DNA from: Eledone cirrhosa
Taxonomy: Eukaryota
Assembly (NCBI GenBank): GCA_964016885.1
Contig: OZ024741.1
Span: 226,920,001 to 226,984,000 of the forward strand
Length of the DNA: 64,000 nucleotides
Direction of reading: 5' to 3'
Shown: positions 2,376-54,000 of the stretch, piece after piece
Position numbering within the stretch: position 1 is the first letter of the stretch
Layout of the letters: each line of letters opens with the position of its first letter
Notes under the pieces: generated by a model
Databases searched by the model: none
What the model was told of the DNA's origin: nothing
Seen by the model: the letters and a program-made list of their open reading frames with translations, nothing else
Position numbers and translations under genes: made by a program

Positions 2376-2596
2376 ACTGTCAGGTATTTATAATCGTACA
2401 CAGTCAGTGTACAGGTTATAGTTATTAGCTCTACCGGGGGGGAGGATCCTTGTATTATTTTTTGACAACAGAACCTGTGTATAAGATACAGGCGTCCTGT
2501 CGGATTTATGAGAGTATTTAATTAGCTCAATGCTTGAAAGCAGAGCCGTTATATGAAACAAAAAACAAAGAGCGCTTACATCATCAATTAATATTT

Positions 2597-19139: not shown

Positions 19140-22100
19140 GTGATAATGCCACACAAAAATCACCGGGAGTGACGAAATCACCGGTGGTTATGTAACCATA
19201 CATTCGCCAATCCTTGATAAGAGTGTTTAAATGTCGAACCTAAACAGTTCGAATAACGGTGAAATGGAGACTAGAATGTCATGTGACAGACTCTCACCCG
19301 ACAGGTGCTCTTTGGCTCAGCAGCATGGACCTGGCTGTCAACCAACTACTGCTGGTGTCGGAGGAAGAAGAAGAAGAAGGAAAGGGACCAGAATCAACTG
19401 AACGAAAGAATTGAATAGAACTGTTATGCAATGTTACCTGAAGAGTAACCCCAAGGAGAAAGGCTATAGGAAACGGATGCATAACATCTGGAACGAGATT
19501 GGTCTATTTAAATTAGATGAACAAAAATTGGCCGGGCAGGCTCGGGTAATAAGAACTAATGGGTGGATAAGCGAGCTGGAACTGGAGGAACTGAGCAGAG
19601 AGATTAGCTTGGAGTATGCCAGGCAAACGAGCTAGTGGGAAATGAAGGTGAAGAGGTCGAGAGAACGGAGGAACCACCCAAAGCAGGCAATGATCTGAAT
19701 GCTGAGATAAATAATACCTGAAACAGAGATACGGCCACTGAGGAGATGAATGCTGACGGGCTAGGACAAGATTTGGTTGATATCCTAAACTTAGTGGTAG
19801 ATGAAATGAACAATGATAATGGGAGACCTATGACCCTAAGATTTGTAGACAGGAAAAAGTTATAAGAAACAACAGCTAAGGTAAACAAAGTCATCCCATA
19901 CCTTGAGGCGAGGAGCCTTCACCAGTGCAACAATATCCTCAAAGCAACAGCAAATACGGTGAGGAAACTACTTGGTATAAAAGCGAGGGGAAACAACAGA
20001 CAAGAAAGATCAGAGCCTTGGTGGAAGAAACGACTGAGTGGTCAAATCAGGGAAATGAGAAATGACATTGGAAAGCTTGAGCCCCTACTGAATGGGACAC
20101 TAAAAGACATAGACACTAAAAATAGACTGGAAATAAAGTACAAAACTAGGAGGAAAAAGCTAAATATTATCATAGAGGAACTGAAGCAACGCATTGTAGC
20201 AAAGAGTGCAAAAATCAGGCGACACGAGAACAGAGTCAGTCAGTATAGACAGAACTGCATGTTCGACAACAACCAGAAGATGCTGTTTGGACAGCTTGAA
20301 GGGAAAGAAAGAGGCAACGACTTGATCCCTGAGGCGGAACAAACTAAAACATTCTGGAGAGGAATATGGGAGCAGGATGTTAAACATAATGACCAGGCAG
20401 TGTGGATTGAGACAGTACAGAAGGAGATTAGTGAACAGGCACACCAACAAACTGATTTGAGTATCACAGTTGAAACTCTTAAGAGGCAGGCCAAAAAACT
20501 AACCAACTGGAAATCACCAGGCCCAGATGGTGTGCAGGGTTATTGGATTAAAAATATAACATCCCTCCACCCGAAACTGACAACGATGTTCAACGACTGC
20601 TTGATGTCAGGTGAGGTACCAGAGTGGTTGACAAAAGGTACCACAGTTCTGATAATGAAAGACCGAATCAAGGGTAATGATGTTACCAACTATAGACCTA
20701 TCACATGTCTGTCCGTAATGTGGAAACTGTTGACAAGCATTATGTCTGAGGAAATCTACCATCACCTCCACATAAACAACTTGTTACCGGACGAACAGAA
20801 AGGATGCCGAAAGAAGTCACGTGGTACAAAGGACCAGTTACTTATTGATAAGATGGTAATGAGGAATTGCAAGAGGAGACACACTGGTCTTGCCATGGGA
20901 TGGATAGACTACAAAAAGGCATTTGACATGGTGCCTCATTCTTGGATCACCAAAAGCCTAGAGATCTTCAAGGTGGCAGATAACATCAGACAGTTGTTGG
21001 GCAAAAGTATGAAGTCCTGGGAAACAGAGTTAACATCAACTGGAGAATCCTTGGGAAGCGTGAAGATCAAGAGAGGTATCTTCCAGGGAGATAGTCTGTC
21101 CCCTCTGTTGTTTGTCCTTACCCTGATGCCCCTGACCAGTGTACTGCGAAAAGTGAGAGAAGGATACAAGTTGGGAAAGGGAGGGCTTACCATCAATCAC
21201 CTCCTCTTCATGGACGATCTTAAGCTCTTCGGGAAGAGTGAGAAGGAGTTGGATGTGCTTGTTGACACTGTCCGTGTTTTCAGCAATGATATATGTATGC
21301 AATTTGGTATTAGTAAGTGTGGAGTCATTGTGATGATGAGGGGTAAGTTGAGCAGAAGTAACGGAATCCAGGTACCAACAGGTGAGATGATAAAGGAAAT
21401 TGACTCAGAAGAAGGATACAAGTATTTGGGTGTTCTGGAGGCTGATGACATCAAGAACAAAAAAATGAAGGAATTGATAAGAACTGAATACATTCGGAGA
21501 GTAAGGAGCGTATTAAAGTCACATCTGAACAATAGGAATGCCATAAGTGCAGTAAATTCCCGAGCTGTGTCTATTATTAGATACAGTGCGGGAATTCTGA
21601 GATGGAATGTTGCTGAACAAAAAGAAATGGATAGGAAGACTAGGAAGCTATTGACTATCTACAACATGTTCCACAAGAGGAATGATGTCGATAGACTCTA
21701 CTTAAGGAGATCTGAAGGTGGAAGAGGTCTTATCAGCATAGAGGACTGTGTTCAGATGGAGAAAAACAACCTACACAAATACGTGACTCATAGTAAGGAG
21801 CCAATGTTCAGAACTGTATTGAAGGAGGGGACAATAGGCCAGGGGATGTCCAAGGAGGAAATAACATCAAGGAAAAAGAGCAGCCTTCAGGAAAAATCCC
21901 TTCATAGTACCTTCTTTGAGAAAACTGAATTCAGAGATCCACAGACATGGAACTGGTTGAAAAGAGGAGACCTTAAAAAGGCTACAGAAGGAATGTTAAT
22001 GGCTGCGCAGGAGCAGGCCCTCAAAACGAAGTGGTTGAAACACCATATTTACAAGGAGGAGGCTAGCCCACTGTGCAGGATCTGTGGAGAGAGAGGAGAC

Positions 22101-22715
22101 TGTGGCTCACATTGTATCCGAGTGTAAACACCTATCCCAGACTTACTATAAGGGCTGGAGACATGATGTGATGGGCAGGGTGATCCACTGGTACCTATGC
22201 AAAGTAAACAATTTACCACATTCTGAGAAGTGGTATGAGCATAAGCCAGAGTCGGTGATAGAAAACGATCAGGTGAAGGTGCTGTGGGATTTTAGGATAC
22301 AGACGAACAAGAAACTGGAACACAATAGACCTGACCTGGTGGTTGTGGACAAAGAAAAAAGATCGTGCCTGATTGTGAATGTGGCCTGCCCATTCGACAC
22401 GAGAGTGCAAGAGAAGGAGAGGGAGAAAATTAACCGATACCAGGACTTAAAGTGGGAGGTAAGAAGGATTTGGAACTGCCATGAAGTCAAAGTGATCCCG
22501 ATTGTCATAGGCGCACTAGGGACTATCTCAAAAAGTTTTCAGGGATGGTTAAAGAAAATTGGCCCCTTCACGCTTTTTGGAACGCTTCAAAAGGCATGCT
22601 TGCTGGGAACAGCAAGAACCCTCCGATACGTCCTGAATATCTGAGGCTGCAGGTAGTGGTTTGATGTTCATTTCAACAAACTTTCCAGTTAACTAACATC
22701 AATGACTGAGACTCA

Positions 22716-23864: not shown

Positions 23865-26800
23865 AACAACAAAAAGAAAACCCCGTGACCAAGAAATACC
23901 GGGATGGCGGCCGGCGGGGAATAGCCGTGTCTCTAGGGGAGAACGACCCCTCTAGTCTTGGTTGACACTCGTTCTAGAAGTGGTAACACGAAATGATTAC
24001 CCCTTGGCGGATAAGGATAAAACGCGACAAAATAAAGTAAATGTCTAATGATAAAATCTCATACCGGATCGGCCGTCACCCGGGTAAAAAAGGGCCGCGT
24101 CCCTCAGAGAGGAACCAGACTGGGGTCGAAAAATCAGCTAATGGTTCAAACCTTCCCATCACTTCGGAGCTGGAGACCTCCCATAACCGGAATACTCCTA
24201 CTGTTGGCCCTCCATGCTCACCACCAAGAAATCCAAAGAAAAAGAGAGAAAAATGGTCAAGGGAAGATAATAAAAAAGTCCTTGAGGTTTTCTACACTGC
24301 CATGTACTACCCATCAAATACATCGAATACAGAACAGACATATATCAACTGGAAAAAGAAACATCCCGAAAACAGAGGCTATATTGACAGTAACAAACTA
24401 GCCAATATACGAAGAAATATTGTAAAAAAAAAGTTACTAACTGATATAGAAATTGATCAGATCAAGCTATTAGCACAAAGTCAGCGAAGGGAAAATGAAA
24501 CATGTGTCAGTGAAAACGAGGTAAACTGTAACACTTCGAACCCCAGGGTTGGGGCGGAATCACTGGCAACAGAACAAATTAAAGAAAGGATCGAAAAAGT
24601 GGAGGGAGTGCATGCTCAGGATGAAACTCCAAATGAAAATAATGAGATCGTAAATGATAAAGAAATGAATGAGAATGAACTTGCCAACTTGAAGGATGAA
24701 ATTATGATCGAATGGATGAAAATGAAAGAATCTGACATGGGGTAACGAGACACCCTCCCTAAGATCCAGAACTCCAAACAGAACCAAAAGATAATACACA
24801 AGACTAACATAATTCTCAAAATCATTATCATCACAAACAAACTAAACATTACTGATTTAAATCCTCTCTATTATGCATCGGCTAAAGTCACCACTCATTT
24901 ATGTGGAGTGAAGATGAAAAAACAAAGGAATTCCCACAAGAAATCTACTTGGCAAGAGAACATCAATCGCCAAATAAACCTTCTCCGATCTGACATAGAA
25001 ATTTTAACAAACTATAAAGTAGGTGAACATGTTAAACAAACTAAACTTAGAAAATTGAAAAAAAAGTACAGTATAAAATCAACATGTGACATAGACATGC
25101 TGATAGAAATAATCAAGCAAAAAGTGTCGGCCAAAGCTGCTCGTATAAGGCGCTTTGAAAAACGATCTAGATTCTATAAGGACAATAATATGTTCAAAAA
25201 CAACCAAAGAAACTTCTACAGAAAAATTGGTAAGTCAACAATAACTGCTAAATCAATACCACCCAAGGAGGAAGTGCAAGAATTTTGGGAAAAGATCTGG
25301 GCCGAAGAAAAAGTTCATAACATACATGCCCCATGGATAGACAGACAAATGAAAGATACAGCTCACCTTGAGGAACAAACATGGGAAAATATAACAGTTG
25401 AACAGTTGCGCTTGGCTCTAAGAAAAACCAGCAAATGGAAATCCCCAGGAAAAGACAAAATACAAAACTTTTGGATAAATGCCTTCACAGAGTCTCATGA
25501 GCTGTTAGCCCAACTTTACAATGAAATAGTTAAGGAGCCAGAAAAGATACCATCATGGCTAGTTAACGGCATTACATTCCTGCTTCCGAAGAATGATGAG
25601 ACAAACAATCCCAAAAATTACAGACCGATAACTTGCTTGACCACAATGTATAAAATTCTAACATCAGTCCTAACTGAATACACATATGACCACCTGATAA
25701 CAAATGACCTATTTCCCATTGAGCAGAAAGGGTGTAAACGAGGCTCATGGCTGTAAGGATCAGTTTCTGGTTAACAAAATGATACTGGAAGATTGTCATA
25801 ATAGACACAAAAATCTATCGATTGCTTGGATAGATTATAAAAAAGCATTCGATAGTTTGCCACACAGCTGGATTGAAAAATGTTTAGAGATTTTCAAAAT
25901 ATCCCCCGTTGTCAGGAGGTTATTGTCATTCAGTATGAAGACATGGAAAACGACACTCCTTTTGAATAGTGAAACAAAATCACTGGAAGCTGGAGAAGTT
26001 AATATTAATTGTGGAATTTTTCAGGGTGACTCTTTATCACCGCTTTTATTCTGCATCGCACTTATACCAGTAAGTAAAATGCTCAATGAAACAAAACATG
26101 GATATAAAGTCTATGACAAAACCATTAATCACCTGTTCTACATGGATGACCTGAAACTATTTGCAAAAAATGATGAACAATTGCAAGGGCTATTATCCAC
26201 TGTGGAGCAGTTCAGTGATGACATTAAAATGGAGTTTGGACTAGATAAATGCGCCAAAGCAACGTTCACCAGAGGAAAGCTGCTGAAAAGTTCAGACATT
26301 AATCTTGATCGGGAGAACGTGATAAGAGAACTTGATCAAGAAAAAACACTTACAAATATCTAGGTGTTTGTGAAGGAGACGGAATCAAGCACTCGACAAT
26401 GGGGGACAGGATAAGGAAGGAATGTTACCGCAGAGTCAGAGCAATCTTAACAACGGAATTGAATGCAAGGAATAGGATCGATGCCATAAACACGCTTGCC
26501 ATACCAGTAGTAACCTACAGTTACAATGTCATCAACTGGTCAAGCACAGAGATCCGTAGGCTCGATACAAAAATTCGAAAATTCTTAACCATGCACAGAA
26601 TGCATCACCCTAAGGCAGATATAGATAGAATATATCTCCCTAGGAAAGAAGGAGGACGTGGGTTAATCCAGTTAGACATTGCGTTGAAAACTGCAACAAT
26701 TGGATTATCTACATATCTAAGGGAATCACATGATTGGATGATCAAACTCGTTTTGAAACACGAAAGCATCAAAAGATCATATTCCATTACAAAAGATGCA

Positions 26801-28281: not shown

Positions 28282-31200
28282 GTTTTCTTTATTAACCACA
28301 AGGGTTTACATAAACTAGACATTAAGGACAGTACAGGACAATACAGGACGGTACAAATGGGCATTTCTGCGTGTAAAAAACAAAAACAGAGGATGTAACA
28401 AAAAAAACAATGAAAAATTCCCCAATAGGGGGGGAGACTTCGGAGGGACATTTGTGGAGAAAGCCCATTAAAAGGACACAGTGACCCTGATCATCAGGGC
28501 AAGTGCCCTCTCCCAGTTTTCCACCTTTAATTTACAGAAACATACTCAGAGTAGGCCCATTCACTCGGGCCATACTTGCTTCTCTCACCCATCTTTCAAC
28601 AAAATGCTGGGAAGATAGCACTCCCCTCTCTACTCTGATTTTCCTTTTCAAATGAAATTTGAAAAAGTCAATCAGGGCATCACCGAAGAGGTAAGTGCTC
28701 GTCTTCAGCCCTTTCAAACGTGTCCACCATACTATCTCTTTCGCCATGGCCACCAGACAGATAAAAACTGCCTGCCCTTCCCGGCTAAAGGAGGAGGGCG
28801 GGGCAATCCTCACGATGGACTCAGCTGATAGCCGTGTCCGTCCTACACGCGACAGCAGGTGTTCGACATAAACCCACAAGTCAGTAATTCTCGGACACTG
28901 GACGAGTGCGTGCAGGACGGTTTCGTAGGCCTGCGCGCATCTCGGACATGCCCGGCTGACGGCACCTCCATGCCTGTAGAGCTTATCCCGAACTAGCCAG
29001 GCTCCTCGGTAGCACTGCCAGGCCAGGGATTTCTGGAATTTGTCCATAGGCCCCGGCCCGAAAGTTCTTCCGAAGACATTGGCTAGTTGATTTTCGTCGA
29101 CGCCTAGAGTTTCCCCAAGTACGTCGTCACTCTTCCCCTCCACTAATCTTCTATAGAACTCCGAGGTGGAGTTTCCACCGATCACATTGCCCGATTGGTC
29201 GAGGGCTGTGAGCGCCTGAAGACATTCCAGTCTCCAAGCGCTCCCTCTCGGTCTTCGCTTGACCCAGGACTGCAGCTCCGTCAAGGAAACGAGCTGGGGA
29301 AAGACGCGTCTAGCAAACGGCGACCACACCTGATCACCGTCGAGGAAGAGGTGGAGATGACGTAGCTTGAGCGCGTGCCCAGCCACGGCATGCCCAGCCC
29401 TCTACGTAGCGGGTGTTGAAAACAGATGGACCGCCTGACCGAAAGAACAAACGCTCCAGCGCAGTCAGGCGGGGCTTAGGACAAGGTACGACGGTCAGGC
29501 GGTAGCAGATGACGGACGTGATGTACGCGTTAGCCACTTCCGCTCGACCTTTCAGGGATAGCTTCCTCTCCGCCCATTTCTGGGTGATAAAAGCCACCCT
29601 GCTCGTCACCTCGTCCCAGTTTTTGTCCGTCTGGAGGTCCGGACCGAACCAGACCCCTAGCAATTTAACCGGCCCGTCCGTCCAGCACCCGACGACGCTC
29701 TTGGACGGCATGGACCTGCCTCTCCAGGTGCCGAGCTGCAGGCCCACTGACTTTTCCTGGTTGATCATTGCTCCTGTCACCGCTTCGTATTCTCTTAGTG
29801 TAGTGCCGATCGCCTCGATGTGTTTGGCGTTCGACACCACTACAGTGACATCATCCGCATATGCTGACACGGATTTTCCGCATCCTAGTTCGCGCGGGAC
29901 GCCCCTCAACGTCTCCAATTTGTGCAGCAATGGCTCGAGAGTCAATACGTACAAGAGGGACGAGAGGGGACATCTTTGGCGGACCGAGCGCATGATGTTG
30001 AACGGTTCTGAAAGGTGACCGTTCACTCTCACCACAGAGCAGATGTCGCTGTGCATGGCAGCGATCCAGCCTCTGAAGACGGGCCCAAAGCCAGGCCCCT
30101 TCAGGACGGCCGCTAGGTAACGATGGGCGACCCTATCGAAAGCTTTCGACTGATCTAAATTGATCAAGGACCCACCCGTGTCAGGTTCCCTAGCTACCCT
30201 CTCTACGATGTATCGCATGAGGTGGAGGTTGTCGTGGATGGATCTGTCGGGAATGGTGCATGTTTGCGCCTCTCCCACCAGACCACCAACGACAAGCGCC
30301 AACCTCTTTGCTAGTACCCTGGCCAAAAGCTTGAACTCTGTGTTTAGCAGAGTTATGGGCCTAAAATTATATATGTTATCCCCCTTGTTCGGATCCTTTC
30401 TCAGCAGCGCTACCGCTCCTCGACTCACAGAGCTGGGAATTCTCCCGTTCTGTTGCCAATTGCAGTAGACGTCCGCCAAGAGGCCTCCGAACAAGTCTGG
30501 TATCTGTACGTAAAGTTCATAGGGCAGACCATCCAAACCAGGCGATTTACCCCTTGTGCAGCCAGTCATTGCCCCCCCCCCGTACTTCAGCGGCTGTTCT
30601 CGGCTTTTCGTAACACGCTTCCCCCGAAGTGTCGCTGAAAAGCTTCACACATTTGCCCGGGATCGAGTAGCATGCGCCCGTCGTGGTCCACCAAAGACCG
30701 GATTGTGGTTTTGTTGCCACGACGCGCCTCCGCCACTCGGGCCCATTGAACGGCTTTTGTCCCCTCGTGTCTGAGAGCAGGCACCCTAGCTCTGACAACG
30801 CAGCCTTCGTGCTTTGCATTGAAGAATTGGTCAACGGCCAATTTCGTCGCGATGCCTTTGCTAAGCGCTTTGTCTAATTTTCTAACTAGTTCTCCCTCTG
30901 CTCTATTTTTCTCTATAGCTAAAGCCTTACTAAACCTAATTGACTCTACTCTAATCGCTCTTTTCAGAGCAAACCACCACTTGTTGTTGACGATGGCCCC
31001 CCGTCAACGCCCGCTTAACTAGTTCGCTAATCCGGTCTTTGTAGGCCTTGCGCGCTGGTAAGGACGCGTTTAGCATCCAGTAGCCGGGTCCTCGTCTATG
31101 AAGCCTATCTAAGGCAAGCACACAGATCACGAATTTGTGGTCCGTGTAGCTGACTATCTTGAATTGTGGACAGCTTATGCTAGACCTATCTATTTCCCTA

Positions 31201-35343: not shown

Positions 35344-35971
35344 TACCACCCTAATGTCTGTACGTAATGAGGGACTGAGAGGGGAGAGAAAGAAAGACAG
35401 AGGTGAAGTGACGAAGTGACTCTCTCTTCCTCCTCCTCCTCCTCCTCCATCTCCCCATTCGTCACAGCGATAGAGGGGAGGAATGTTAGTGTGTTACAAA
35501 GAGAAAGAGTGAGAGTGAGAGAAACAGACAGACTAAAAGAGAGGGATAGCTGGAGAGAGAGAGAGAGAGATAGCAACCACGCGCGCACGTGTTTCCACTG
35601 TCGGACAGACAGACAGAGAAATTGCTGGTTATATATTATAAGGAGATAAGATACAATAAATTCATTCTAAAACTTTTCTGCAACATCCTATAAAGAAAAT
35701 TTACTCTTGCATGGACAGCGTTTACCCTTATATTGACAAGCCACGCCCCTGATGATATGGCCAGTTAACTGTGAGCCGTTTTAGCAATCAGTCTGAAGAC
35801 GTAAAGTTTTATGTATAGCATAACGTAAAACATGTCCTCTCCAGACAAAATATATAGAATATGTATAAATATTTCGTATCTCCAAAGAAATACGGTTTTA
35901 GGAAGCCGTAGCTATGCCAACACCGGGGGGCTAACGCCCTCTGGTGATGTCCAGCAGAAACAAGGGGGACA

Positions 35972-36015
35972 ACCGTCTATGTATTTCAGGCTTAACTGGC
36001 CTTCGTCAGGAGGGT
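35972..36015 (-). ncRNA. Hammerhead ribozyme (left arm)
   Basis: accctc-CTGACGA-aggc-cagttaa-gcct-GAAA-taca-TA-gacggt. Confidence 0.7.
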
Positions 36016-36200
36016 CCCTCCCACCGCTTGCGACTGCTGGACTAGAAGACAGGCGAGAATATATACTTTTCTCGTCTGTGTAAATGAGGTGAGTAATCTC
36101 ATTTGCATATGAAGCTGCATAAGTTGGCTCATTTACACAGACGAGAAATGTATATATTCTCGCCTGTCTTCTAGTCCAGCAGTGGCAAGCGGTGGGAGGG

Positions 36201-36244
36201 ACCGTGCTGACGAAGGCCAGTTAAGCCTGAAATGCATAGACGGT
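36201..36244 (+). ncRNA. Hammerhead ribozyme (right arm)
   Basis: accgtg-CTGACGA-aggc-cagttaa-gcct-GAAA-tgca-TA-gacggt; palindromic stem III ATGCAT. Confidence 0.72.
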
Positions 36245-37123
36245 TGTCCCCCTTGCTTCTGCTGGACATCAACAGAGGGCGTTAGCCCCCGGTGCTTGCA
36301 TAGCTACAGCTTCCTAAAACCGTATTTCTTTGGAGATACAAAATATTTATACATATTGTATAAAGCTATGCTTGAAGCGAAATCCTATTTCTTTTATATA
36401 GAATATGTATAATATTTTTCCTGATAAGCTGGTAGACAAACGAACTGGACAGATCGCTGACTACCAAGCATATGACTAGAAAAAACTCAGCACACAAGGG
36501 GGTTACGTGATTGTGGAAAACATTACAGTTGGTTTAAATGATTCGTAAATTATTTAAAATATAGCGTAATTAGATTGGTAAAAAGAAAATTTAAAAAAGA
36601 AACAAAAATTGACCATTATTCAGTCTTAATGTCGCTTATAATCATTGAAGATAAGTATTAAATCAAAAGTATATATTGTATCAGGAAAAATATTCTATTA
36701 AGACAGGAATAAAATTATGGATACAATAATAAAGGGGAACGAATTTGGATTATAGAATTTGCAAGAAAGCTATTCTTTATTATGTATACTTAGATATTGA
36801 AATTATTGAAGAGAAAAGTATTTAATAGTTGAGAGGGTTCTTTTTATATATGTATTTTTAAATATATAGTTAAGTATGCTTTAATATTGCGTAATAAATT
36901 ATTTATTTTAGAAGAAGTGAGATAATTATCTATATTAAAAATTCTCAATTCAACAATGTTATTTAAAGTAGATTATATTAAAACTTTGAATAATTATTTA
37001 GAAAGAAAACAAGTGTATGTATAATAGCCGAATTTATCAATTTCTATTAAAATTAATTTATTTAGATACAACCTAAATTTAAAGTAGAAGAAAAATTATA
37101 CCGAAGTAAGATTATAAGAGAGA

Positions 37124-37189
<66 letters not shown>

Positions 37190-37363
37190 GGAATAAAATG
37201 AAACGAAATTTCATTTCTCACTCTTAGTACGGCACTCCATTTATCGTTTTCGGTGCGCCTGGCCGACTGAACTCACTCGATATGCAAATTAGGCTGCTCA
37301 GCCGTTAATTTTCATAAGGAAAGTATATACTTTCGGACGTTCAACCATCTGGCAGGAAGGTAT

Positions 37364-37406
37364 ACGGTGCTGACGATAGCTAATAAGCTTGAAACTAGTA
37401 CATCGT
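37364..37406 (+). ncRNA. Hammerhead ribozyme in a ~350-bp element inserted in (TA)n
   Basis: acggtg-CTGACGA-t-agct-aata-agct-t-GAAA-ctag-TA-catcgt: stem I 6 bp, palindromic stem III ACTAGT, GUA triplet. Confidence 0.78.
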
Positions 37407-37645
37407 TCCTGTGTCAGTGTTGAACAAAAAGGTGACGTGGTTGCCTAAACACTGTACAGCGTAATTCAGGCTGTTTGTTTGTTTACAAACGAACAAACCG
37501 AGCATTATAATAAATGTTCGGTAAACTGATACGTGCATATATATATATGTGTGCCTGTATGTATATATATACATGCTACTGTACGTCTGTATACATATAT
37601 GTATGTACGTATACATACATACTTACATTTATATATATATATATA

Positions 37646-37980
37646 TATTATTCAAAATATTAATAAATGAGAAATATCATAACCAAAGTATATATTTTAT
37701 TATACATATTTCAAAGGTACAATGGTGTTTCAGTACGTTTTCATCAGATAAAATATATAAGAGATTGGATATGCGACATACCGCTAAGGTACTTGAATCT
37801 TCAATTGCTGTAGTGGCAGAATTGAAGATCAAAGTACCTTAGCGGTATGTCGGATATCCAGTATCTTATATATTTTATCTGATGAAAACGTACTGAAACA
37901 CCATTGTACCTTTGAGATATGTATAATAAAATATATACTTTGGTTATGATATTTCTCATTTATTGATATTTTAAATAATA
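37646..37980. repeat. ~335-bp inverted repeat with a degenerate HHR core in each arm
   Basis: The arms are reverse complements around 37808-37822; CTGATGA-aaacgtact-GAAA-caccattg-TA at 37879. Confidence 0.85.
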
Positions 37981-38399
37981 TTATAGATACTCCAGATAAA
38001 CTGTCGAGTGCTTCTAATCTATTGTAAAATTGAATTTGTTATATATAACTTTTGGTTATATATTTATATATATAGGTTTTATGAAGTTACTCATGACGGT
38101 ACACTTATTACTACTCACTGCTAAAATAACCGTACAAACAGCATACGCATGTCATAGACAATGTGACTGATGTCTAATGGCAAAGCGTCAAATGTGGAAT
38201 ATTGGTTATAAAGCCAACACCAATGCTTGGGCTGAACATTTCATAGAGTACATTTGCCTACAATAAAAGAGGCAGTAACAAAATGGCCACAACGGACATT
38301 ATGGTTTAGAAACTTTCCTAACGAAACGGAATCATGAGGAAAAATCATTTTTTTTTAATGTTAAAACACGAGTACATTAAGAACCCATGTCTAAAACAA

Positions 38400-39780: not shown

Positions 39781-40129
39781 TTAACTTCTGAAGTAGAAGC
39801 CATGCTTCACATCGGCTCCCTGAAAATTTTCTGGATATTTTATTTTTTCACCGACCTTAACTTTTGGTTCAAGGTAGAAATTTTATTTCAACACATTTAA
39901 AACAAACACCAGAATAATGGATACTGCATCTAAAAGAAAAACTAAATCAACAAAATTTAAATTTCTAAATTTTCCCCCACCCAACAAAAACAAAAACAAA
40001 AATGTCAATGAAAGGGAAACGTGCCACCTGCGTTGTCGTGACTGGTGATCTTGGTTAATCTTGTAATTAGAGTCAGTTTCCTCTGATTACTAATTGTCAC
40101 GTGTTATAATGGTGAGTGATTGCCATTGC

Positions 40130-41971
40130 TATTCATGCCACACCTAACGTAACCACCCAAACACCTCCACCAACACCACCACCAATACCACCACCAATAC
40201 TACCACCAGCATCACCACCAATACCACCACCAATACTACCACCAATACCACCACCACCAATACCACCACCAATACTACCAACAACACCTATACTACCACC
40301 AATACCACCACCAGCAATACCACCACCACCAATACCACCACCAATACTACCACCAGCAATACCACCACCACCAATACCACCACCAATACTACCACCAGCA
40401 ATACCACCACCACCAATACCACCACCAATACTACCAACAACACCTATACTACCACCAATACCACCACCAGCAATACCACCACCACCAATACCACCACCAA
40501 TACTACCAACAACACCTATACTACCACCAATACCACCACCAGCAATACCACCACCACCAATACCACCACCAATACTACCAACAACACCTATACTACCACC
40601 AATACCACCACCAGCAATACCACCACCACCAATACCACCACCAATACTACCAACAACACCTATACTACCACCAATACCACCACCAGCAATACCACCACCA
40701 CCAATACCACCACCAATACTACCAACAACACCTATACTACCACCAATACCACCACCAGCAATACCACCACCACCAATACCACCACCAATACTACCAACAA
40801 CACCTATACTACCACCAATACCACCACCAGCAATACCACCACCACCAATACCACCACCAATACTACCAACAACACCTATACTACCACCAATACCACCACC
40901 AATACCACCACCAATACCACCACCAATACTACCAACAACACCAATACTACCACCAATAGCACTACCACCAAGACCAACACCAATACAACCCCCAATACAA
41001 CCACCACCAGTACCACGACCAACACCAACACCACCAACAGCACCAATATCACCCCCACCACCACCACTGTCGTTCTCCTCCACAAGCAGAATCACCACCA
41101 ACGTCATCACTACCACCTCCACCATCAACACTGTCACCCTCACCACTCCAAACACCATCACCACTCTCACCCTCACCACTCCAACCATCATCACCATCAT
41201 CACCATTGGATAATATTAAACTAAATACATACAAACACCACTACTACAACTGACGACACTACCACCACCACCACCACCACCACCACAACCACCATCATCA
41301 CCACCACCACACCACTATCACCACCACCACCAACAACACCATTATCGCCACCACCACCACCAACACCAACACCACCACCACCAATACCACCACCACCACC
41401 ACCAACACCACCATAAACACCACCACTGGCACCACCACCACCACCTCCATTAATACCACCATCGGCACCACCACCACCAACATCACCACAACCACCACCA
41501 CCACCACCACTACCACCACCACCACCACCACCACCACCACCACCATTAATACCACCATCGGCACCACCACCACCAACATCACCACAACCACCACCACCAC
41601 CACCACTACCACCACCACCACCACCACCACCACCACCACCACCATTAATACCACCATCGGCACCACCACCACCAACATCACCACTACCACCACCACCACC
41701 ACCACTACCACCACCACCACCACCACCACCACCACCATTAATACCACCATCGGCACCACCACCACCACCAACATCACCACAACCACCACCACCACCACCA
41801 CCACCACCACCACCACCACCACCACCACCACCACCACCACCACCAGCAGCACCACCAACACCATCACCATTGGTTAATGTGAACGTAGATACACGTTAAC
41901 ACTACTACAAATGAGAACACTGCCACCATCACCATCGCAACTACCAACAACACAAATAACATCCATTACAG

Positions 41972-42016
<45 letters not shown>

Positions 42017-45000
42017 TCACTGCCATCATCATCATCATCCTCATAACCCACGACACATCCTCATCTGTTACCACCAACACTATTACTACATTCATTGCTC
42101 CTCTCCCATTACAAACACTACCACTACCACTACCACTGCCACTAACACTATCATTGCCACTACCACTACCACTATAACTACCACTACCACTACCACTGCC
42201 ACTAACACTATCATTGCCACTACCACTACCACTATAACTAACACTACCACTACCACTGCCACTACCACTATAACTACCACTACAACTGCCACTACCACTA
42301 CCACTATAACTACCACTACCACTACCGCAGCCACTAACACTACCACTACCACTACCACTACCACTACAACTACAACTACAACTATCATTACCACTACCAC
42401 TATAACTACCACTACCATTACCGCAGCCACTAACACTACCACTAACACTACCACTACCACTACCACTACCACTACAACTACAACTACCATTACCACTGTA
42501 ACTACCACTACCAGTACCACTACCACTATAACTACCTCTACAACTACCACTACCATTGCCACTACCACTGCCACTAATACTACCACAAACACTACCACTA
42601 TAACTACCACTAACACTACCACACAACACTACCCACTACCACTATAACTACCACTACAACTACCACTATGACTACCACTACCAGTACCACTACCACAGCC
42701 ACTAACACTACCACAAACACTACCACTATAACTACCACTAAAGCTACCACTACCACTACCAATATCATTGTCACTACCACTATAATTACCACTGCCACTA
42801 CCACTACCACCACCACTATAACTACCACTACCACTACAATTACCACTACCACTACACTACCACTACCACTACCTCTGCCACTAACACAACCACAAACACT
42901 ACCACTATAACAACCACTACCACTATAACTATCACTACCACTACCACTACAACTACCACTACCATTATAACTACCACTACCACTGCCACTAACACAATCA
43001 CTTCCACTATCACTACCACTACCACTACCACTACCAATACCATACCACTGCCACTACCTTTACCACTACCAATGCCACTAACACTAAGACTAACACTACC
43101 ACTATAACTACCACTACCATTACCGCAGCCACTAACACTACCACTAACACTACCACTACCACTACCACTACAACTACAACTACCACTACCACGACCACTA
43201 TAACTACCACTACCAGTACCACTACCACTATAACTACCTCTACAACTACCACTACCAGTACCACTACCACTGCCACTAACACTACCACAAACACTACCAC
43301 TATAACTACCACTAAAACTACCACTACCACTACCAATAACATTGCCACTACTACTATAATTACCACTGCCACTACCACTACCACTACCACTATAACTACC
43401 ACTACCACTACAATTAACACTACCACTACACTACCACTACCACTGCCTCTGCCACTAACACAACCACAAACACTACCATTATAACTACCACTACCACTAT
43501 AACTACCACTACCACTACCACTACAACTACCACTACCACTACCTCTGCCACTAACACTACCACTGCCACTAACACAATCACTTCCACTATCACTTCCACT
43601 ATCACTACCACTACCACTACCACTACCACTACCAAACCACTGCCACTACCTTTACCACTACCAATGCCACTAACACTAAGACTAACACTACCACTATAAC
43701 TACCACTACATCTACCATTGCCACTACCACTTATTCTACCACTGCCAGTACCACTACCACTAAAACTAGCACTACGACTATAAATCCCACTACCACTACC
43801 ACTGCCACTACCACTAACACTACCACTACCACTACCACTACCACTTTCACTACCACTACCACTTTCAGTGGTATTGGTAGTGGGAGTTATAGTGGTAGTG
43901 GTACCACTATAACTCCCACTACCAATACCACTGAAAGTAATCCTACCACAAACACTACCACTATAACTACCACTACCACTACCGATACCACTACCACAAA
44001 CAATACCACTACCACTACCAATACCACAAACACTACCAATGCCACAAACACTACCAATAAAACTACCACTACAACTAGCAGTACCACTGCCACTAACACT
44101 AAAACGAACACTACCATTATAAATACCACTACCACTACCACTACCACTGCCACTAACACTACCACTGCCACTGCCAATACCAATGCCACTACCACTGCGA
44201 CTACCATTACCACTACCTCTATAACTACCACTACCACTACCACTGCCACTAACACTACCACAAACACTACCACTATAACTACCACTACCACTATAACTAT
44301 CACTATAACTACCACTATCACTACCACTGCCACAACCACTATAACTACAACTCCCACTGCCGCTAACACTACCACTAACAATACCACTACCACTAGCACT
44401 ACCACTACAACTAGCACTACCGCTACCACTACAACTACCACTTCCACTACCACTACCACTGCCACTAACACAACCACTTCCACTACCACTACCACTACCA
44501 CTACCACTGCCATTACCACTACCACTACCACTACCACTGCCATTACCACTACCAATACCACTACCATTACCACTACCACAAACATTATCACTACCAATAC
44601 CACTACCACTACCACTACAAATACCACTAACACTACCAATGCAACTAACACTACCACTAACACTACCACTATAACTACCACTACAAATAGCACTACCGCT
44701 ACCACGACCTCTACCACTACCTCTGCCACTAACACTACCACAAACATTACCACTACCACTATAACTAACACTACCACTACCGCAGTCACTAACACTACCA
44801 CAAACACTGCCACTATAACTAACACTACCACGACCACTGTAACTAGAACTACCACTGCCACTGCCACTACCACCATAACTACCACTAACAATACCTCAAA
44901 TACTACCACTATAACTATCAATACAAATACCCCTACCACTACCACGACCAAGACCACTATATCTGCCACTAACACTACCACAAACACTACCACTATAACT

Positions 45001-48000
45001 ACCACTACAACTACCACTAACACTACCACTACCAGTACCACTAACACTGCCAGTAACACTACAACAAACACTACCACTATAACTACCACTATAACTACCA
45101 CTGTTACTACCCCTAACACTACCACTACCACTACCACTACCACTGCCACTACCACTATAACTGCCACTACCACTACCACTATAACTACCACTATAAATAC
45201 CACTACCACTACCACTACCACTACCACTACCACTATCACAAACACTGCCACTAACACTACCACTAACACTACCACTGCCACTAACACTAACACTAACACT
45301 ACCACTATAACTACCACTACCACTACCATTGCCACTACCACTACCACTGCCACTGCCACTATCACTACCACTACAACTAGAACTACCACTATAAGTACCA
45401 CTACAACTACCGCTACCATTATAACTACCACTACCACTACCACAAACACTTCCACTACCACTATAACTACAACTACCCTAAAATTACCAATACCACTTCC
45501 ACTGCCACTACTAATACTAACACTAACACTGCCACTATAACTAACACTACCACTTGTACAATCACTACCACTTCTACGACCACGACCACTGCCACTAACA
45601 CTACCACTACCACTAACACTATAACTACCACTACCACTACCACTGCCACTAACACTATCACAAACACTGCCATTGTAACTAGCACTATCACTACCACTAC
45701 CACTACCACTACCACTACCACTGCCACTACCACTACCAGTATAACTACCACAACCACTACCACTTCCACTAACACTACCACTATAACTAGCACAACCACA
45801 ACCACTATAGCTACCACTACAACTACCACTACCACAAAAATACCATTAGCACTACCACTAACACTACAACAACCACTACCACTACCACTGTCACTAACAC
45901 TACCACTAACACTACCACTGCCAATAACACTAACACTAACACTACCACTATAACTACCACAAACACTACCACTATGGATTCCACTGCCACTACTAACACT
46001 ACCACTAACTCTGCCACTATAACTAACACTACCACTACCACTTCTACGACCACTACCACTTCTACGACTACTACCACTGCCACTAACATTAACACAAACA
46101 CTAACACTACAACTACCACTACCACAAACTACCACTATAACTACCACTACCACTAACACTACCACAAACACTACCACTATAACTACCACTACCACTATAA
46201 CTATCACTATAACTACCACTATCACTACCACTGCAACAACCACTATAACTACAACTCCCACTGCCGCTAAAACTACTACAAACACTACCATTATAACTAC
46301 CACTACCACTACCACTACCACTACAACTACCACTACCGCTACCACTACAACTACCACTTCCACTACAACTACCACTGCCACTAACACAACCACTTCCACT
46401 ACCACTACCACTACCACTACCACTACCACTACCACTGCGATTACCACTACCAATATAACTACCATTACCACTACCACAATCACTTCCACTACCACTACCA
46501 CTACCACTACCACTGCCACTACCACTGCGATTACCACTACCAATATAACTACCATTACCACTACCACAATCACTACCACTACCACTACCACTACCACTAC
46601 AAATAGCACTAACACTACCAATGCAACTAACACTACCACTAACACTACCACTATAACTACCACTACAAATAGCACTACCACTACCACGACCTCTGCCACT
46701 AACACTACCACAAACGTTACCACTACCACGATAATTACCACTACCACTACCATTGCCACTACCACTACAACTGAACTACCACTACCACTAAAACTACCAC
46801 TACCAATATAACTACCACTACCACTGCCATTAACACAACCACTAACTCTACCACTACCACTTCCACTACCACTGCCACTACCACTACCAGAACCAATACC
46901 AATACCATACCACTGCCACTACTATTACCACTACCAATGCCACTAACACTACCACTATAACTACCACTACCATTGCCACTACCACTACCTCTACCACTGC
47001 CAATACCACTACCACTAAAACTAGCACTACCCCCATAACTACTGCTACCACTACCACTACCACTACCACTGCCACTACCACTACCACTATAACTACCACT
47101 ACAACTACCACTACCACTACCACTACCACTATAACTCCCACTACCAATACCACTGTAAGTAATCCTACCACAAACGCTACCACAAACACTACCACTATAA
47201 GTACCACTACCACTACCGCAGCCACTAACACAAACACTACCACTATAACTACCACTACTATTACCACTACAACAACCACTACCACTACCACTACCAATGC
47301 CACTAACGCAACCAAAAGCACTACCACGCTAACTACCACTATAACTACCACTACCACTAACACTACCACTACCACTGCCTCTACCACCTCCACTAACACT
47401 ACCACAAACACTACCACTACAACTACCACTACAACTACCACTACAACTACCACTACAACTACCACTACCTGTACCACTTCCATTAACACTACCACAAAGA
47501 CTACCACTAAAACTACCACTACAACTACCACTACCAATACCAGTAACACTACCACTACCACTACGACTATCACGACGACTACCACTGCCACTTGCACTAA
47601 CACTAACACTACCACTATAACTACCACTCCGACTATAACTACCGCTACCCCTACCACTACCACTGCCACTCTCACTAACACTAACACTAGCACTACCACT
47701 ATAACTACGACTACCAAAACCACTACCACTACCACTAAAAATAGCACTACCACTACCACTGTAACTACCACTACCACTACCACTACAAATACCACTATAA
47801 CTACCACTACCACTACCACTACCATTACCACTATAACAACCACTACCAATACCATGACGCTAATGCTACCACAAACACTATCACAAAAACTACCACTACC
47901 ACTACCACAAACACTACGACTTCCACTACCACATCACTACCACTACCACTACAACTACCACTACGACTACCACTACCACAACCACTAGCACTACCACTAC

Positions 48001-51000
48001 CACTACCAATGCCACTATCACTAACACTAACACTACCACTATAACTACCACTACCACTACCACTGCTACTAATACAACCACTGCCACTGCCACAAACCAC
48101 TACCACTACCACTGCCACTACCTCAAACACTACCACTATAACTACCACTACCACTAGCACTACCAATATAACTACCACTATAACTACCACTATCACTACC
48201 ACTACCACTATAACTACCACTACCACTACCACTACCACTGCCACTAACACTACCACAATCATTACCACTATAAATACCATTACAGGTACCACTATCACTA
48301 CCACTACCACTACCACTACAACTACCACTACCACTATAAATACAACTACCACTACCACTATAAATACAACTACCACAAACAATACCACTACCACTACCAC
48401 TACCAATACCACTACCACTACCACTACAACAACCACTACCACTACCACTACCACTGCCACTACCACTACCACTACCATTAACACTACCACTAACACTACC
48501 ACTAAGACTACCACTACCACTAACACTAACACTACAACTACCACTTCCACTACCACTACCACTACCACTAACACAACCACTAACACTACTAACACTACCA
48601 CTACCACTGCCTCTACCACTACCACTAACAATACCACTACAATACCACTTTCACGACCACTACCACTGCCACTTGCACTAACACTAACTCTACCACTATA
48701 ACTGCCACTACCACTACCACTGCCACTAATATAACCACTACCAATACCTCTACCACTACCACTACCACTAGCACTACCACTACCACTACCACTACCACAA
48801 ACACTACCACTACCACTACCACTACCAATACCACTACCACTACCACTATAACTACCACAAACACTACCACTACCACTACCACTACAACTACAACTGCCAC
48901 TACCACTATCACTATAACTAACACTAACACTACGACTGTCACTAACACTACCACAAACACTACCACTATAACTACCACTATCACTACCACTACAACTACC
49001 ACTACAAATACCAGTACCACTGCCACTGACACTACCACAAACAATACCACTATAACTACCACTACAACGACCACTATCACTACCACTACCACTGCCAATA
49101 ACACTACCACAAACGCTACCACTATAACTGCCACTACAACTACCACTACCACTACCATTACCACTACCACTGGGTCTACCACTATAACTACCACTGCCAC
49201 TAACACTACCACAATCACTACCACTACCACTACCATTGCCACTACCGTTACCACTACCACTGCCACTGCCACTAACACTAACACAAGCACTACCATTATA
49301 ATTAGGACTACCACAACCACTACCACTACCACTAAATCTAGCACTAACACTACCACCGTAACTACCACTACCTCTACTACTACAACTACCACTATAACTA
49401 CCACTACCACTATAACAATCACTACCAATACCATGACACTAATGCTACCACAAACACTACCACAAACACTACCACAAACACTACCACTAAAACTACCACT
49501 ACCACTACCACAAACACTACGACTACCACTACCGCATCAACTAGCACTACCACTACCACTACCACTACCACTATAACTACCACTAACACTACCACAAACA
49601 CTACCACTATAACTAACAATACAACTACTACTACCACTACCACATCCACTACCACAAACACTACCATATAAATACCTCTACAACATTACCACTAACACTA
49701 CCACTGCCAGTACCACTATAATTACCACTGCCACTACCACTACCACCACCACTACCACTATAACTACCAGTACCACTACCACTGCCACTATAACTACTAA
49801 TATAACTACCACTACAATTACCACTGCCACTACCACTATAACTAACACTAACACTACCACAAACACTACCACTATAAGTACCATAACCATTACCACTATA
49901 ACTACAACTACCACTACCACTACCACTACCACTATAATTACCAGTACCACTACCACTGCCACTAACACTACCAGAAACAATCCCCATATAACTACCACTA
50001 CCACTACAACTACCACTACCACTACCACTACGACTACCACAAACACTACCACTACAACAACCACTACCACTACGACTACCACTACCAATGCCACTAACAC
50101 TAACACTAACAGTACCACTATAATTACCACTACAACTACCACATCCACTGCCACTAACACAACCACTACCACTGCCACATACCACTACAACTACCACTAC
50201 CACTGCCACTAACACTACCACAAACACTATCACTATAACTACGACTACCACTACCAATATAACTACCACTATAACTACCACTATCATACCACTACCACTA
50301 AAACTATCACTACCACTACCACTACCACTACCACTGCCACTAACACTACCACAAACACTACCACTATAACTACCATTACAGTTAGCACTACCACTACAAC
50401 TACCACTACCACTACAACTACCACTACCACTACAAATACCACTACCACAAACATTACCACTACCACTACCATTACCACTACCACTACCATTACCACTACC
50501 ACTACCACTACAACAACCACTACCACTACCACTGCCACTAACACTACCACTACCATTAACACTACCACTAACACTAACACTATAACTACCACTACAAGAA
50601 CCACTATAACTACCACTACCACAGCCAGTAACACTAACACTAACACTACCATTATAACTACCACTACCATTACCACTACAACTACCACTACCATTGCCAC
50701 TGCCACTAACACTACCAAAATAACTACTACTATAACTACCACTACCACTACCACTGCCTCTACCACTTCCACTAGTACTACCAGAAACACTACCACTACA
50801 ACTACCACTACAACTACCACTACAACTACCACTGCCACTAACACTACCACAAACACTAACACTAAAACTACCATTACAACTACCACTACCAATACCACTA
50901 TCACGACCACTGCCACTTACACTAACACTAACACTACCACTATAACTACCATAACCACTACCACTACGGCTACCACAAACTCTACCACTACCACTACATC

Positions 51001-54000
51001 TACCTCTCCCACAACAACAAACACTACCACTACCACTGCCACTAACATTACCACTAACACTACCACTACCATAAACACTACCACTATAATTACCACTACC
51101 TCTACAACTACCACTACCACTATAACTACCACTACCACTACCACGACCACAAACACTACCACTACCAATACATCTACCTCTACCACAGCAACAAACACTA
51201 CCACTACCACTGCCACTAACATTACCACTAACACTACCACTACAACTACCACTACCACTATAACTACCACTAACACTATAACTACCACTACCACAAACAC
51301 TACCACGCTAACTACCACTACCCTACCACTACCACTGCCACTGCCACTACCACTGCCACTAAAACTAGCAGTACCAGTATAACTACCATTACCACTACCA
51401 ATAAAACTACCACTACCACTGCCAATACCACTACCACTACCACTATATCTACCACTGTCACTACCACTACCACAAACACTACCACTATAACTACCACTAC
51501 CACTACCACTACCACTACCACTACAACTACCACTACCACTACCACAATAACTACCACTAGAACTACCACTGCCACTACCTCTACCACTACCACTGCCACT
51601 ACCATTATAACTATCACTGGCACTACCACTACCACTACCTCTACCACTATAACTACCACTACCACTACCACTGCCACTAACACTACCACTAACACTACCA
51701 TTATAGCTACCACTACAACTACCACTACATCTACCACTACAATTATAACTACCACTACCACTACAACTACCACTACCACTAACACTACCACTATAACTGT
51801 CACTACCACTACCACTGCCACTAACACTACCACAAACACTACCATTATAATTACCACTGCCATTACCACTACAACTACCACTACCACTACCACTATAACT
51901 ACCACTACCACTACCACAAACACTACCACTACCACTACCACTACCACTGCCACTACCACTACCACTACCTCTATAACTACCACTAGCACTGCCACTATCA
52001 CTACCACTATAATTAATACTACCACTGCCACTAATACTACCACTAACACTACCACAAACACTACCACTGCCACTACCACTACCACTACCAATGCCACTAC
52101 CACTATAATTACCTCTACCACTATCACTACCACTACCATTACCTCTACAACTACAAATACCACTATAACTACCACTATAACTACCACTACCACTACCACT
52201 GCAACTACCACTATAACTACCGATACAACTAACACTACCACTACCACTATCGCAGCCACTAACACTACCACAAACACTACCACTATAACTACCACTACCA
52301 CTAATACTACCACTACCACTGCCACTATAACTACCACTACACTACTACTGCCACTAACACTACCACAAACACTACCACGCTAACTACTTGTACCACTACC
52401 ACTATAACTACCACTACCCCTACCAATACCACTGCCACTATGGTGCCACTAACACTACCAAAAACACTACCACTATAAGTACCACTACAACTACCACTAC
52501 CACTGCCACTACCACTATAACTACCACTGCCACTACCACTACCACTACCACTACCTCTACCACTATAACTAACACTACCACTACCATTGCCTCTAACACT
52601 ACCAAAACACTACCAGTATAATTACCACTACCACCACCAATATAACTACCACTATAACAACCACTACCACTATAACTAGCACTACCACTAACACTGCCAC
52701 TAACACTACCACAAACACTACCACGCTAACTACCAGTACCACTACCACTATAACTACCACTACCCCTACCACTACCACTACCACTGCCACTACCACTACC
52801 ACTAAAACTAGCACTACCACTGTAACTACCACTACCACTACCACTACCACTATCACTTCCACTATCACCACCGTTATAATTACCACTGCCACTAATACTA
52901 CCACAAACACTACCACTATAACTACCACTACCACTACCACTAACAATACCACTATAATAACCACTACCACTACCACTACCACAAACACTACCACTACCAT
53001 TACAACTACCACTACCACTACCACTGCCACTACCACTACCCCTACCACTACCACTACCACTACCATTACCACTACCACTGCCACTGCCACTACCACTATT
53101 ACTACCACTACCACTACCACTACCACTTCCACTACCACTATAACTACCACTACCACTACCACTACCACTACCACTACCACTGCCACTGCCACTATCCCTA
53201 CCCCTACCACTACCACTATAACTACCACTACCACTATGACTACCACTACCACTACCACTATGACTACCACTACCACTACCATTACCACTACCACTACCAC
53301 TACCACTATAACTACCACTAGTACTACCACTATAACTACAACTACAACTACCACTATAACTACCACTACCACTACCACTATAACTACCACTACCACTACA
53401 ACTACAACTACCACTACCACTACCACTATAACTACCACTACCAATACCACTACCACCATCACCATCATCACCTTCACCATCACCACCATCACCATCACCA
53501 CCATCACCATCACCACCATCACCACCATCACCACCATCACCATCACCATCACCACCATCACCACCATCACCATCATCAACATCACTATCAACACCATCAC
53601 CATCACCACCATTACCATCACCACCATCACCACCATCACCACCATCACCATCACCGTCACCACCATCACCACCATCACCACCATCACCACCATCACCATC
53701 CCCATCACCACCATCATCATCACCACCATCACCAGCACCAGCACCAGCACCACCACCACCACCATCACCGTCCCCATCACCACCATCACCATCACCACCA
53801 TCACCAGCACCATCACCACTACCACCACACACCACAACCACTATCACTACAACTACCACCACAACCACAACTACCACCACAACTACCACCACAACTACCA
53901 CCACAACCACAACTACCACCACTACCACAACTACCACCACAACTACCACCACAACTACCACCACAACCACAACTACCACCACGACAACCACTACCACCAC

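Follow-up and report, generated by a model that had tools for sequence, protein, structure and literature searches.

Non-LTR retrozymes of animals are described, in the accessible text of the sources cited here and below, as non-coding tandem units of 150-450 nt that carry a type I hammerhead and occur as monomers and dimers (PMC7229834; bioRxiv 10.64898/2026.07.22.740005). Their dependence on Penelope-like elements (PLEs) is a published proposal (PMC7229834, PMC7761336, bioRxiv 10.64898/2026.07.22.740005), which is based on co-occurrence and on similarity to pLTRs. PLE insertions themselves possess an inverted 5'-truncated copy and a tail of 30-40 bp at one end (Craig et al. 2021, PMC8557442), the origin of the tandem and inverted PLE structures being an open question according to PMC8557442. 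A PLE protein was shown to cut and extend both strands, with two initiation sites that bound the tail (Frangieh et al. 2024, PMC11167929); in vitro, no strand difference in start sites was reported, priming was free of homology, and hammerhead cleavage was dispensable (PMC11167929). Those PLE hammerheads whose stem III is palindromic undergo cleavage in dimeric form, according to a review (PMC6765202).

The locus described here lies within a stretch of 64,000 nt from Eledone cirrhosa, the whole of which is referred to as the window. A non-LTR retrozyme, a tandem hammerhead repeat with a non-coding unit of ~322 nt, has inserted here once, and the copy is ageing. The palindrome was probably formed during insertion by the enzyme of a PLE. 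The initial annotation, made from the letters of the window, had placed here a 510-bp palindrome with two inverted arms. The arms were borne out by a 236-nt alignment with 13 differences (94.5%; 35853-36088 versus 36128-36362), but the element continues to 36395 with a 38-nt tail and is flanked by direct repeats of 18 nt. Its parts are as follows.

35851..35868, + strand: left direct repeat, 18 nt, identical to 36395-36412, a likely target-site duplication, the last 11 nt of which also match the tail-less end of the element
35858..36131, - strand: left arm, unit positions ~16-289, ending without a tail (P1), 97.8% identical to the family majority
35972..36015, - strand: hammerhead of type I in the left arm, predicted to cut after 35978, with one mismatched pair in stem I and a broken stem III palindrome
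36060..36065, - strand: left-arm TATA, 43 nt from the octamer start
36101..36108, - strand: octamer ATGCAAAT, part of the monomer
36128..36131, no strand: head-to-head junction, a locus-specific 4-nt overlap common to both arms
36128..36395, + strand: right arm, unit positions ~59-326, ending in the tail (P2), 96.3% identical to the family majority
36151..36156, + strand: right-arm TATA, read from the sequence, with the reversed octamer starting 50 nt upstream by chance of the junction at this locus
36201..36244, + strand: hammerhead of type I in the right arm, predicted to cut after 36238, with an intact stem III palindrome (ATGCAT)
36358..36395, + strand: one-sided 38-nt tail, ending in the only sense-strand T run of the unit
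36395..36412, + strand: right direct repeat, 18 nt

The left arm contains the octamer, TATA and hammerhead, whereas the right arm is 5'-truncated below the octamer. An octamer does occur at 36101, as had been annotated, but the supposed spacer around it is the 5' part of the left arm, which reaches further than that of the right arm, and the octamer belongs to the monomer; the TATATA noted in each arm was found again at 36151 and 36060-36065. A 548-nt stretch of the locus folds as a single hairpin (z = -41.8 versus 100 shuffles), and no ORF of at least 150 aa was observed at the palindrome locus. Contigs from three sequencing runs of one sample covered the repeat and hardly covered the left unique flank, and are thus uninformative on the locus or its expression; a contig joint skipping 35866-36416, present in two of the three runs, may represent an empty site or a related repeat.

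The family was searched in the 3.0-Gb genome (G000) that holds the window. A 27-mer from the tail had 874 exact matches genome-wide and an internal 28-mer had 440, with none for the reversed controls, so that the arm is multicopy, a point for which the initial annotation had proposed a BLAST search. Tandem copies were spaced by 314, 328 and 330 nt, and the majority unit is 322 nt long, with the octamer at 39, TATA at 82, the hammerhead core at 138, the predicted cut after 169, and one T6 run at the end. Arm lengths reach 630 nt, and no long tandem arrays were seen in the sampled loci. A type I hammerhead with paired stems, a tandem unit within 150-450 nt, lack of an ORF, and a multicopy and dispersed occurrence are the properties by which a retrozyme was recognized; the non-coding unit and its size, the hammerhead type, the presence of monomers and dimers and the proposed PLE link are the same as in the animal non-LTR retrozymes described in the available text of Cervera and de la Pena (2020) and Li, Clavereau and Pollet (2026). 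A diverged subfamily of the 322-nt repeat (L231, L234-L258; 1,907 candidates), often head-to-head, was also found, with an AUC triplet, a 17-nt insertion, no T run at the tail, and compensatory changes in the stems.

Hammerhead cores with CTGACGA, an aggc/gcct stem II, GAAA and an AUA triplet were located at 36207 (+) and 36009 (-), in agreement with the outward-facing hammerhead annotated in each arm. The different single stem I mismatch attributed to each arm also held when compared with the family majority, that of the right hammerhead being the pair adjoining the core, whereas the palindromic stem III held for the right arm (ATGCAT) but is broken in the left arm by a G-to-A change. Since a scan of the 64-kb window at the Rfam gathering threshold gave no families, the hammerheads were identified by their motif, their fold and the covariation of their stems. 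The fold of the left hammerhead was absent from the predicted minimum-energy structure, and the 11 core bases were intact in 86 of 122 arms. Substitutions per site within the family amounted to 0.033 in the core versus 0.044 in the background, a conservation only slightly above background and hence not counted as a sign of selection. The diverged subfamily retains the core and the ATGCAT palindrome and has both-sided changes in three of the four stem II pairs and in one stem I pair, which represent about five events between two lineages and not independent samples. These compensatory changes, which the initial annotation had named as a check, support the ribozyme fold. Cleavage is predicted, probably as a dimer; among predicted dimers of Xenopus retrozymes, eight of nine did not cleave, as stated in the accessible text (bioRxiv 10.64898/2026.07.22.740005). 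The predicted ribozyme resembles the PLE hammerheads described in the available sources in its very short palindromic stem III and type I topology, and differs from them in a stem I lengthened by further helices.

The octamer and TATA of the unit have counterparts upstream of host U6 genes. Two such genes carry ATGCAAAT at -76/-77 and TATA at -30, a U6 cluster has a one-base variant, and the 12-nt motif TATGC(A/T)AAT(G/T)AG is common to the element and the upstream regions of three U6 gene types. The motif was absent upstream of four U2 loci and one RNase P locus, as well as from 14 weaker U6 matches and from three of the eight copies in the U6 cluster, in which a different repeat is interposed. 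The distance from octamer to TATA is 43 nt in the element versus 46-48 nt in the U6 genes, and a T6 run is present at the tail end in this subfamily, with none there in the diverged one. It is thus reasonably probable, judging from these motifs, that source copies are transcribed from a U6-like octamer and TATA (Pol III) promoter. Internal promoters have been reported for other hammerhead repeats, of snRNA type in newt satellite 2 and for Pol III in a schistosome satellite (PMC2220036), and the 322-nt unit appears to share with them the combination of hammerhead repeat and internal promoter. However, newt satellite 2 is reported, in the text available, as transcribed by Pol II, whereas the present unit matches host U6 upstream sequence with TATA. 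The putative U6-like promoter also sets the unit apart from described retrozymes: no retrozyme with a U6 or octamer promoter was encountered in the titles and abstracts searched, mostly of open-access literature. The U6 upstream regions (L061-L063) show a compact promoter with an octamer-like motif at about -77 and TATA at -30, which the proximal regions of U2 and RNase P are without; this compact promoter could be of use for small-RNA expression in E. cirrhosa.

Head-to-head junctions were counted in two samples, both drawn almost wholly from contig C1. The tail-motif sample comprised 64 loci (24 distinct ones from the first 30 of the 874 27-mer matches, six duplicates being dropped, and 40 more), 40 of which had such a junction; the internal-motif sample comprised 40 loci, 25 with a junction, and since 13 of the 40 were chosen as already seen paired, it gives no estimate of frequency. 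Neighbours within 2 kb among the first 100 of the 440 28-mer matches were divergent in 21 cases, on the same strand in six and convergent in none, at distances of 155-1258 nt. None of the 65 junctions fell within 8 nt of the junction at this locus, and a search of the genome with the 22-nt junction pattern, allowing at most one mismatch, returned two matches, this locus and one copy of the diverged subfamily. An overlap was found at 47 of the 54 gap-free junctions (mean 2.9 nt versus 0.68 nt expected, with possible inflation because the ends are BLAST-derived). The palindrome is probably made anew at each insertion, and head-to-head is the usual insertion form of the family. Two junctions recurred among the 65 loci, one of them exactly, at the unlinked loci L170 and L187 (G000:C1:224681014 and C1:417811565), which are its sole two matches in the genome, and from these recurrences a palindrome may rarely be re-copied. 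The prevalence of head-to-head insertions with a one-sided tail among the sampled loci distinguishes this family from described retrozymes. The word "inverted" does not occur in the main text of PMC7229834, and no inverted, head-to-head or ambisense genomic retrozyme was described in the literature searched, which was mostly open-access and included the accessible text of the Li et al. preprint.

The initial annotation had favoured a different explanation, that the palindrome is itself the replicating unit, bidirectional and producing self-cleaving RNA of both polarities in a viroid-like layout. A conserved centre was not found, since the centre differs at nearly all loci and this junction has the single further match given above, even though the exactly repeated L170/L187 junction is what such a unit would show. 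All 20 distinct top BLAST loci were palindromes of similar size, as would suit a unit of fixed layout, although they were picked by resemblance, and at six of the 20 the octamer segment lay in the opposite arm. At this locus 43 nt separate the octamer from the left TATA, and 50 nt separate it, in reversed orientation, from the right one, so that weak two-way transcription may occur here. Transcripts diverging from the centre, however, would be two RNAs of the same sense and not RNA of both polarities. In the predicted read-through transcript each ribozyme pairs with its own complement, and both are buried in a modelled hairpin of -437 kcal/mol. The two arms of this copy have none of 11 variants in common and have decayed independently, not by design. 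With the octamer within the monomer, the junction not conserved and the ribozymes predicted to be buried, there is only a very slim chance that the bidirectional unit exists as proposed. Viroid-like and HDV-like circular RNAs with hammerheads in both polarities are known from the accessible text of PMC7761336, and the likeness to them lies in a hammerhead on each strand of this stretch. Unlike in those RNAs, a single motif is present here twice, as an inversion in DNA around a centre that is not conserved. 'Ambisense' hammerhead palindromes in animal genomes can therefore be by-products of insertion, and caution is advisable in their interpretation.

At one locus, L211 (G000:C1:381878500-381879950), the whole head-to-head insertion is tandemly duplicated with a period of 530 nt and ~2.5 units, with hammerheads on both strands; among 124 loci this is the sole layout able to release an ambisense circle. 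That a duplicated palindrome of this type serves as the template for a largely self-paired circular RNA of 530 nt, with a hammerhead per polarity, is very unlikely. If it were true, the PLE type of insertion would regularly place hammerheads on both strands, viroid-like ambisense RNA circles could arise from animal genomes, and the L170/L187 junction would represent a re-copied palindrome.

The outer ends of the arms, in contrast to the variable centre, are fixed, lying near unit position 288 or 38 nt beyond it. A tail-less end was paired with a tailed one in 21 of 21 pairs of the internal sample and 27 of 28 of the tail sample, 48 of 49 in all, counting only pairs with both ends classifiable (16 of the 65 palindromes being left out); the tail sample excludes pairs of two tail-less ends by design, whereas the internal sample allowed such pairs and had none. 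A (TA)4+ run was found at 82 of the 91 tailed and 57 of the 71 tail-less ends (139 of 162) versus a background of 8%, in a test window that took in 8 nt of the AT-rich element end. Because the flanks are (TA)n, target-site duplications are mostly unmeasurable across the family: flanking repeats of at least 10 nt that are not microsatellite were seen at six of 67 junction pairs, two of these being artefacts of one tandem locus, compared with 2.6% in controls. An inverted 5'-truncated adjacent copy, a one-sided tail of 30-40 bp and microsatellite or AT-rich targets are thus present, as in the PLE insertions of the accessible literature, in which two initiation sites likewise bound the tail; the inverted copy with its one-sided tail and the (TA)n targets uphold the PLE mobilisation that the initial annotation had thought likely. 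Differences from PLEs are that the 322-nt unit is without an ORF, that its ends show short target homology, and that its start sites are strictly paired (48/49), whereas no strand difference is given in the available text of the in vitro study (PMC11167929). Long inverted arms and TA-rich targets would also suit a DNA transposon of the MITE or foldback type, bounded by long terminal inverted repeats. However, the family has no fixed interior, its ends are asymmetric, many copies are one-armed or tandem, and the ribozyme fold is conserved; this type of element was rejected for the variable interior and has next to no probability.

The paired ends also bear on whether one arm was copied from the other, either by fold-back of the cDNA or by repair fold-back after insertion. 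Variants common to both arms of a locus occur at 0.0086 per site versus 0.0019 (maximum 0.0035) when permuted (1000 permutations, 85 loci), a 4.6-fold excess that fold-back would explain and that fits one source or one epoch for both arms; in a neighbouring family, several loci have the same private changes in both arms. Fold-back predicts a mirrored second arm, whereas either arm can hold sequence that is absent from the other, and 48 of 49 pairs stop at different fixed sites. Copying of one arm into the other is accordingly very unlikely.

The 5' ends of the arms are distributed evenly along the unit (p = 0.28) and do not accumulate at the predicted cut site (2, expected 4.5) or the predicted start (9, expected 8); 121 of 162 arms span the cut site, and 50 of 162 are longer than one unit. 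The even 5' ends, the lack of an excess at either site and the over-length arms indicate that a cleaved linear monomer is not the main template. The template would, on balance, have been a circular or a long uncut multimeric RNA, both of which the data fit alike.

As a plainer alternative, the initial annotation had proposed a head-to-head inversion of a pLTR. The inversion stands, but the assignment to a pLTR calls for revision, as the arm is a free tandem unit without a joined PLE ORF in 124 loci. A related alternative takes the arm as the pLTR of a coding PLE present in heavily truncated copies, and not as a free retrozyme. A relation of retrozymes and pLTRs is indicated for Xenopus in the accessible text of bioRxiv 10.64898/2026.07.22.740005, and the hammerhead region of a neighbouring family is 68% like the sequence downstream of a GIY-YIG gene (L088). 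PLE protein matches were present in the flanks of 15 of the 124 loci, yet by inspection none of the 15 is the end of an ORF joined in sense to the 5' end of an arm, and a search with five PLE proteins found no RT and GIY-YIG ORF joined to the repeat in any of the 124. The over-length arms (50/162) continue into the previous unit instead of an ORF, and the unit matched none of the 30 GIY-YIG loci compared, out of 10,597 candidates in the genome. A pLTR origin is therefore unlikely. The genome does hold coding PLEs: RT and GIY-YIG matches were present in all three long ORFs scanned, and two of six long PLE loci were inverted. L115 and L120 are coding PLEs (RT and/or GIY-YIG) in inverted form, with arms of 1,440 nt and 847 nt.

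The reading of the palindrome as the product of PLE-mediated insertion is based on features that are observed, namely the tandem unit, its copy number, the variable centre, the strictly paired fixed ends, the (TA)n targets and the junction overlaps, and would involve the following steps. Source copies would be transcribed from the U6-like octamer and TATA promoter, a step held to be somewhat probable. The hammerhead would then cut the read-through RNA, probably as a dimer, and the RNA may circularise, so that a circular or long uncut RNA would, with comparable likelihood, be the template. The RT/GIY-YIG protein of a PLE would, quite probably, cut both strands of AT-rich DNA and use each of the resulting DNA ends to prime reverse transcription, at two RNA sites separated by 38 nt, and the two truncated cDNAs would be joined head to head at microhomology. 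The copy would thereafter decay without homogenisation, which would explain the separate stem I mismatch in each arm. The family displays the insertion signature of PLEs on a retrozyme that is itself free, thereby lending genomic support to the mobilisation of retrozymes by PLEs. It adds that the two start sites are strictly paired, with each DNA end using one of them, and that no template terminus is visible in the 5' ends, a pattern that a circular or a long uncut RNA would give; and it offers a small testable substrate for questions of retrozyme mobilisation and of the inverted structures of PLEs.

Two other hammerhead repeats within 2.2 kb share the same inverted form with a one-sided tail. 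Family B, at 37185-37630, is a ~442-nt tandem hammerhead repeat with 2,097 candidates in the genome and is very young (98-99% identical); its octamer and TATA are 42 nt apart, its stem III palindrome is ACTAGT, and the copy in the window has a head-to-head layout in which the tailed arm is short and the tail-less arm long. Family C, at 37645-38010, is a further palindrome, whose hammerhead-like cores face outward and whose tail is on one side only. It was palindromic at all 40 places scored, with slightly varying centres and private changes common to both arms at several loci, and is the family with 68% likeness to the sequence downstream of the L088 GIY-YIG gene.

Further hammerhead motifs were found in the window at 2638 (-) and 9788 (+). 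PLE-like RT fragments with a YRDD motif lie at 310-2387 (-), accompanied by the hammerhead at 2638, and at 5455-6291 (+); they had no Pfam match and presumably are of the Naiad/Hydra type. The region 40090-57000 is occupied by ~17 kb of a degenerate tandem repeat that is rich in ACC and built in multiples of 3 nt; its strand skew is extreme, and it contains long open frames. Fragments with RVT_1 were found at 12184-14046, 19866-22127, 25701-26363 and 29334-30644, one of them also with zf-RVT, and another zf-RVT frame at 28532-29401; these are remains of ordinary non-LTR retrotransposons.
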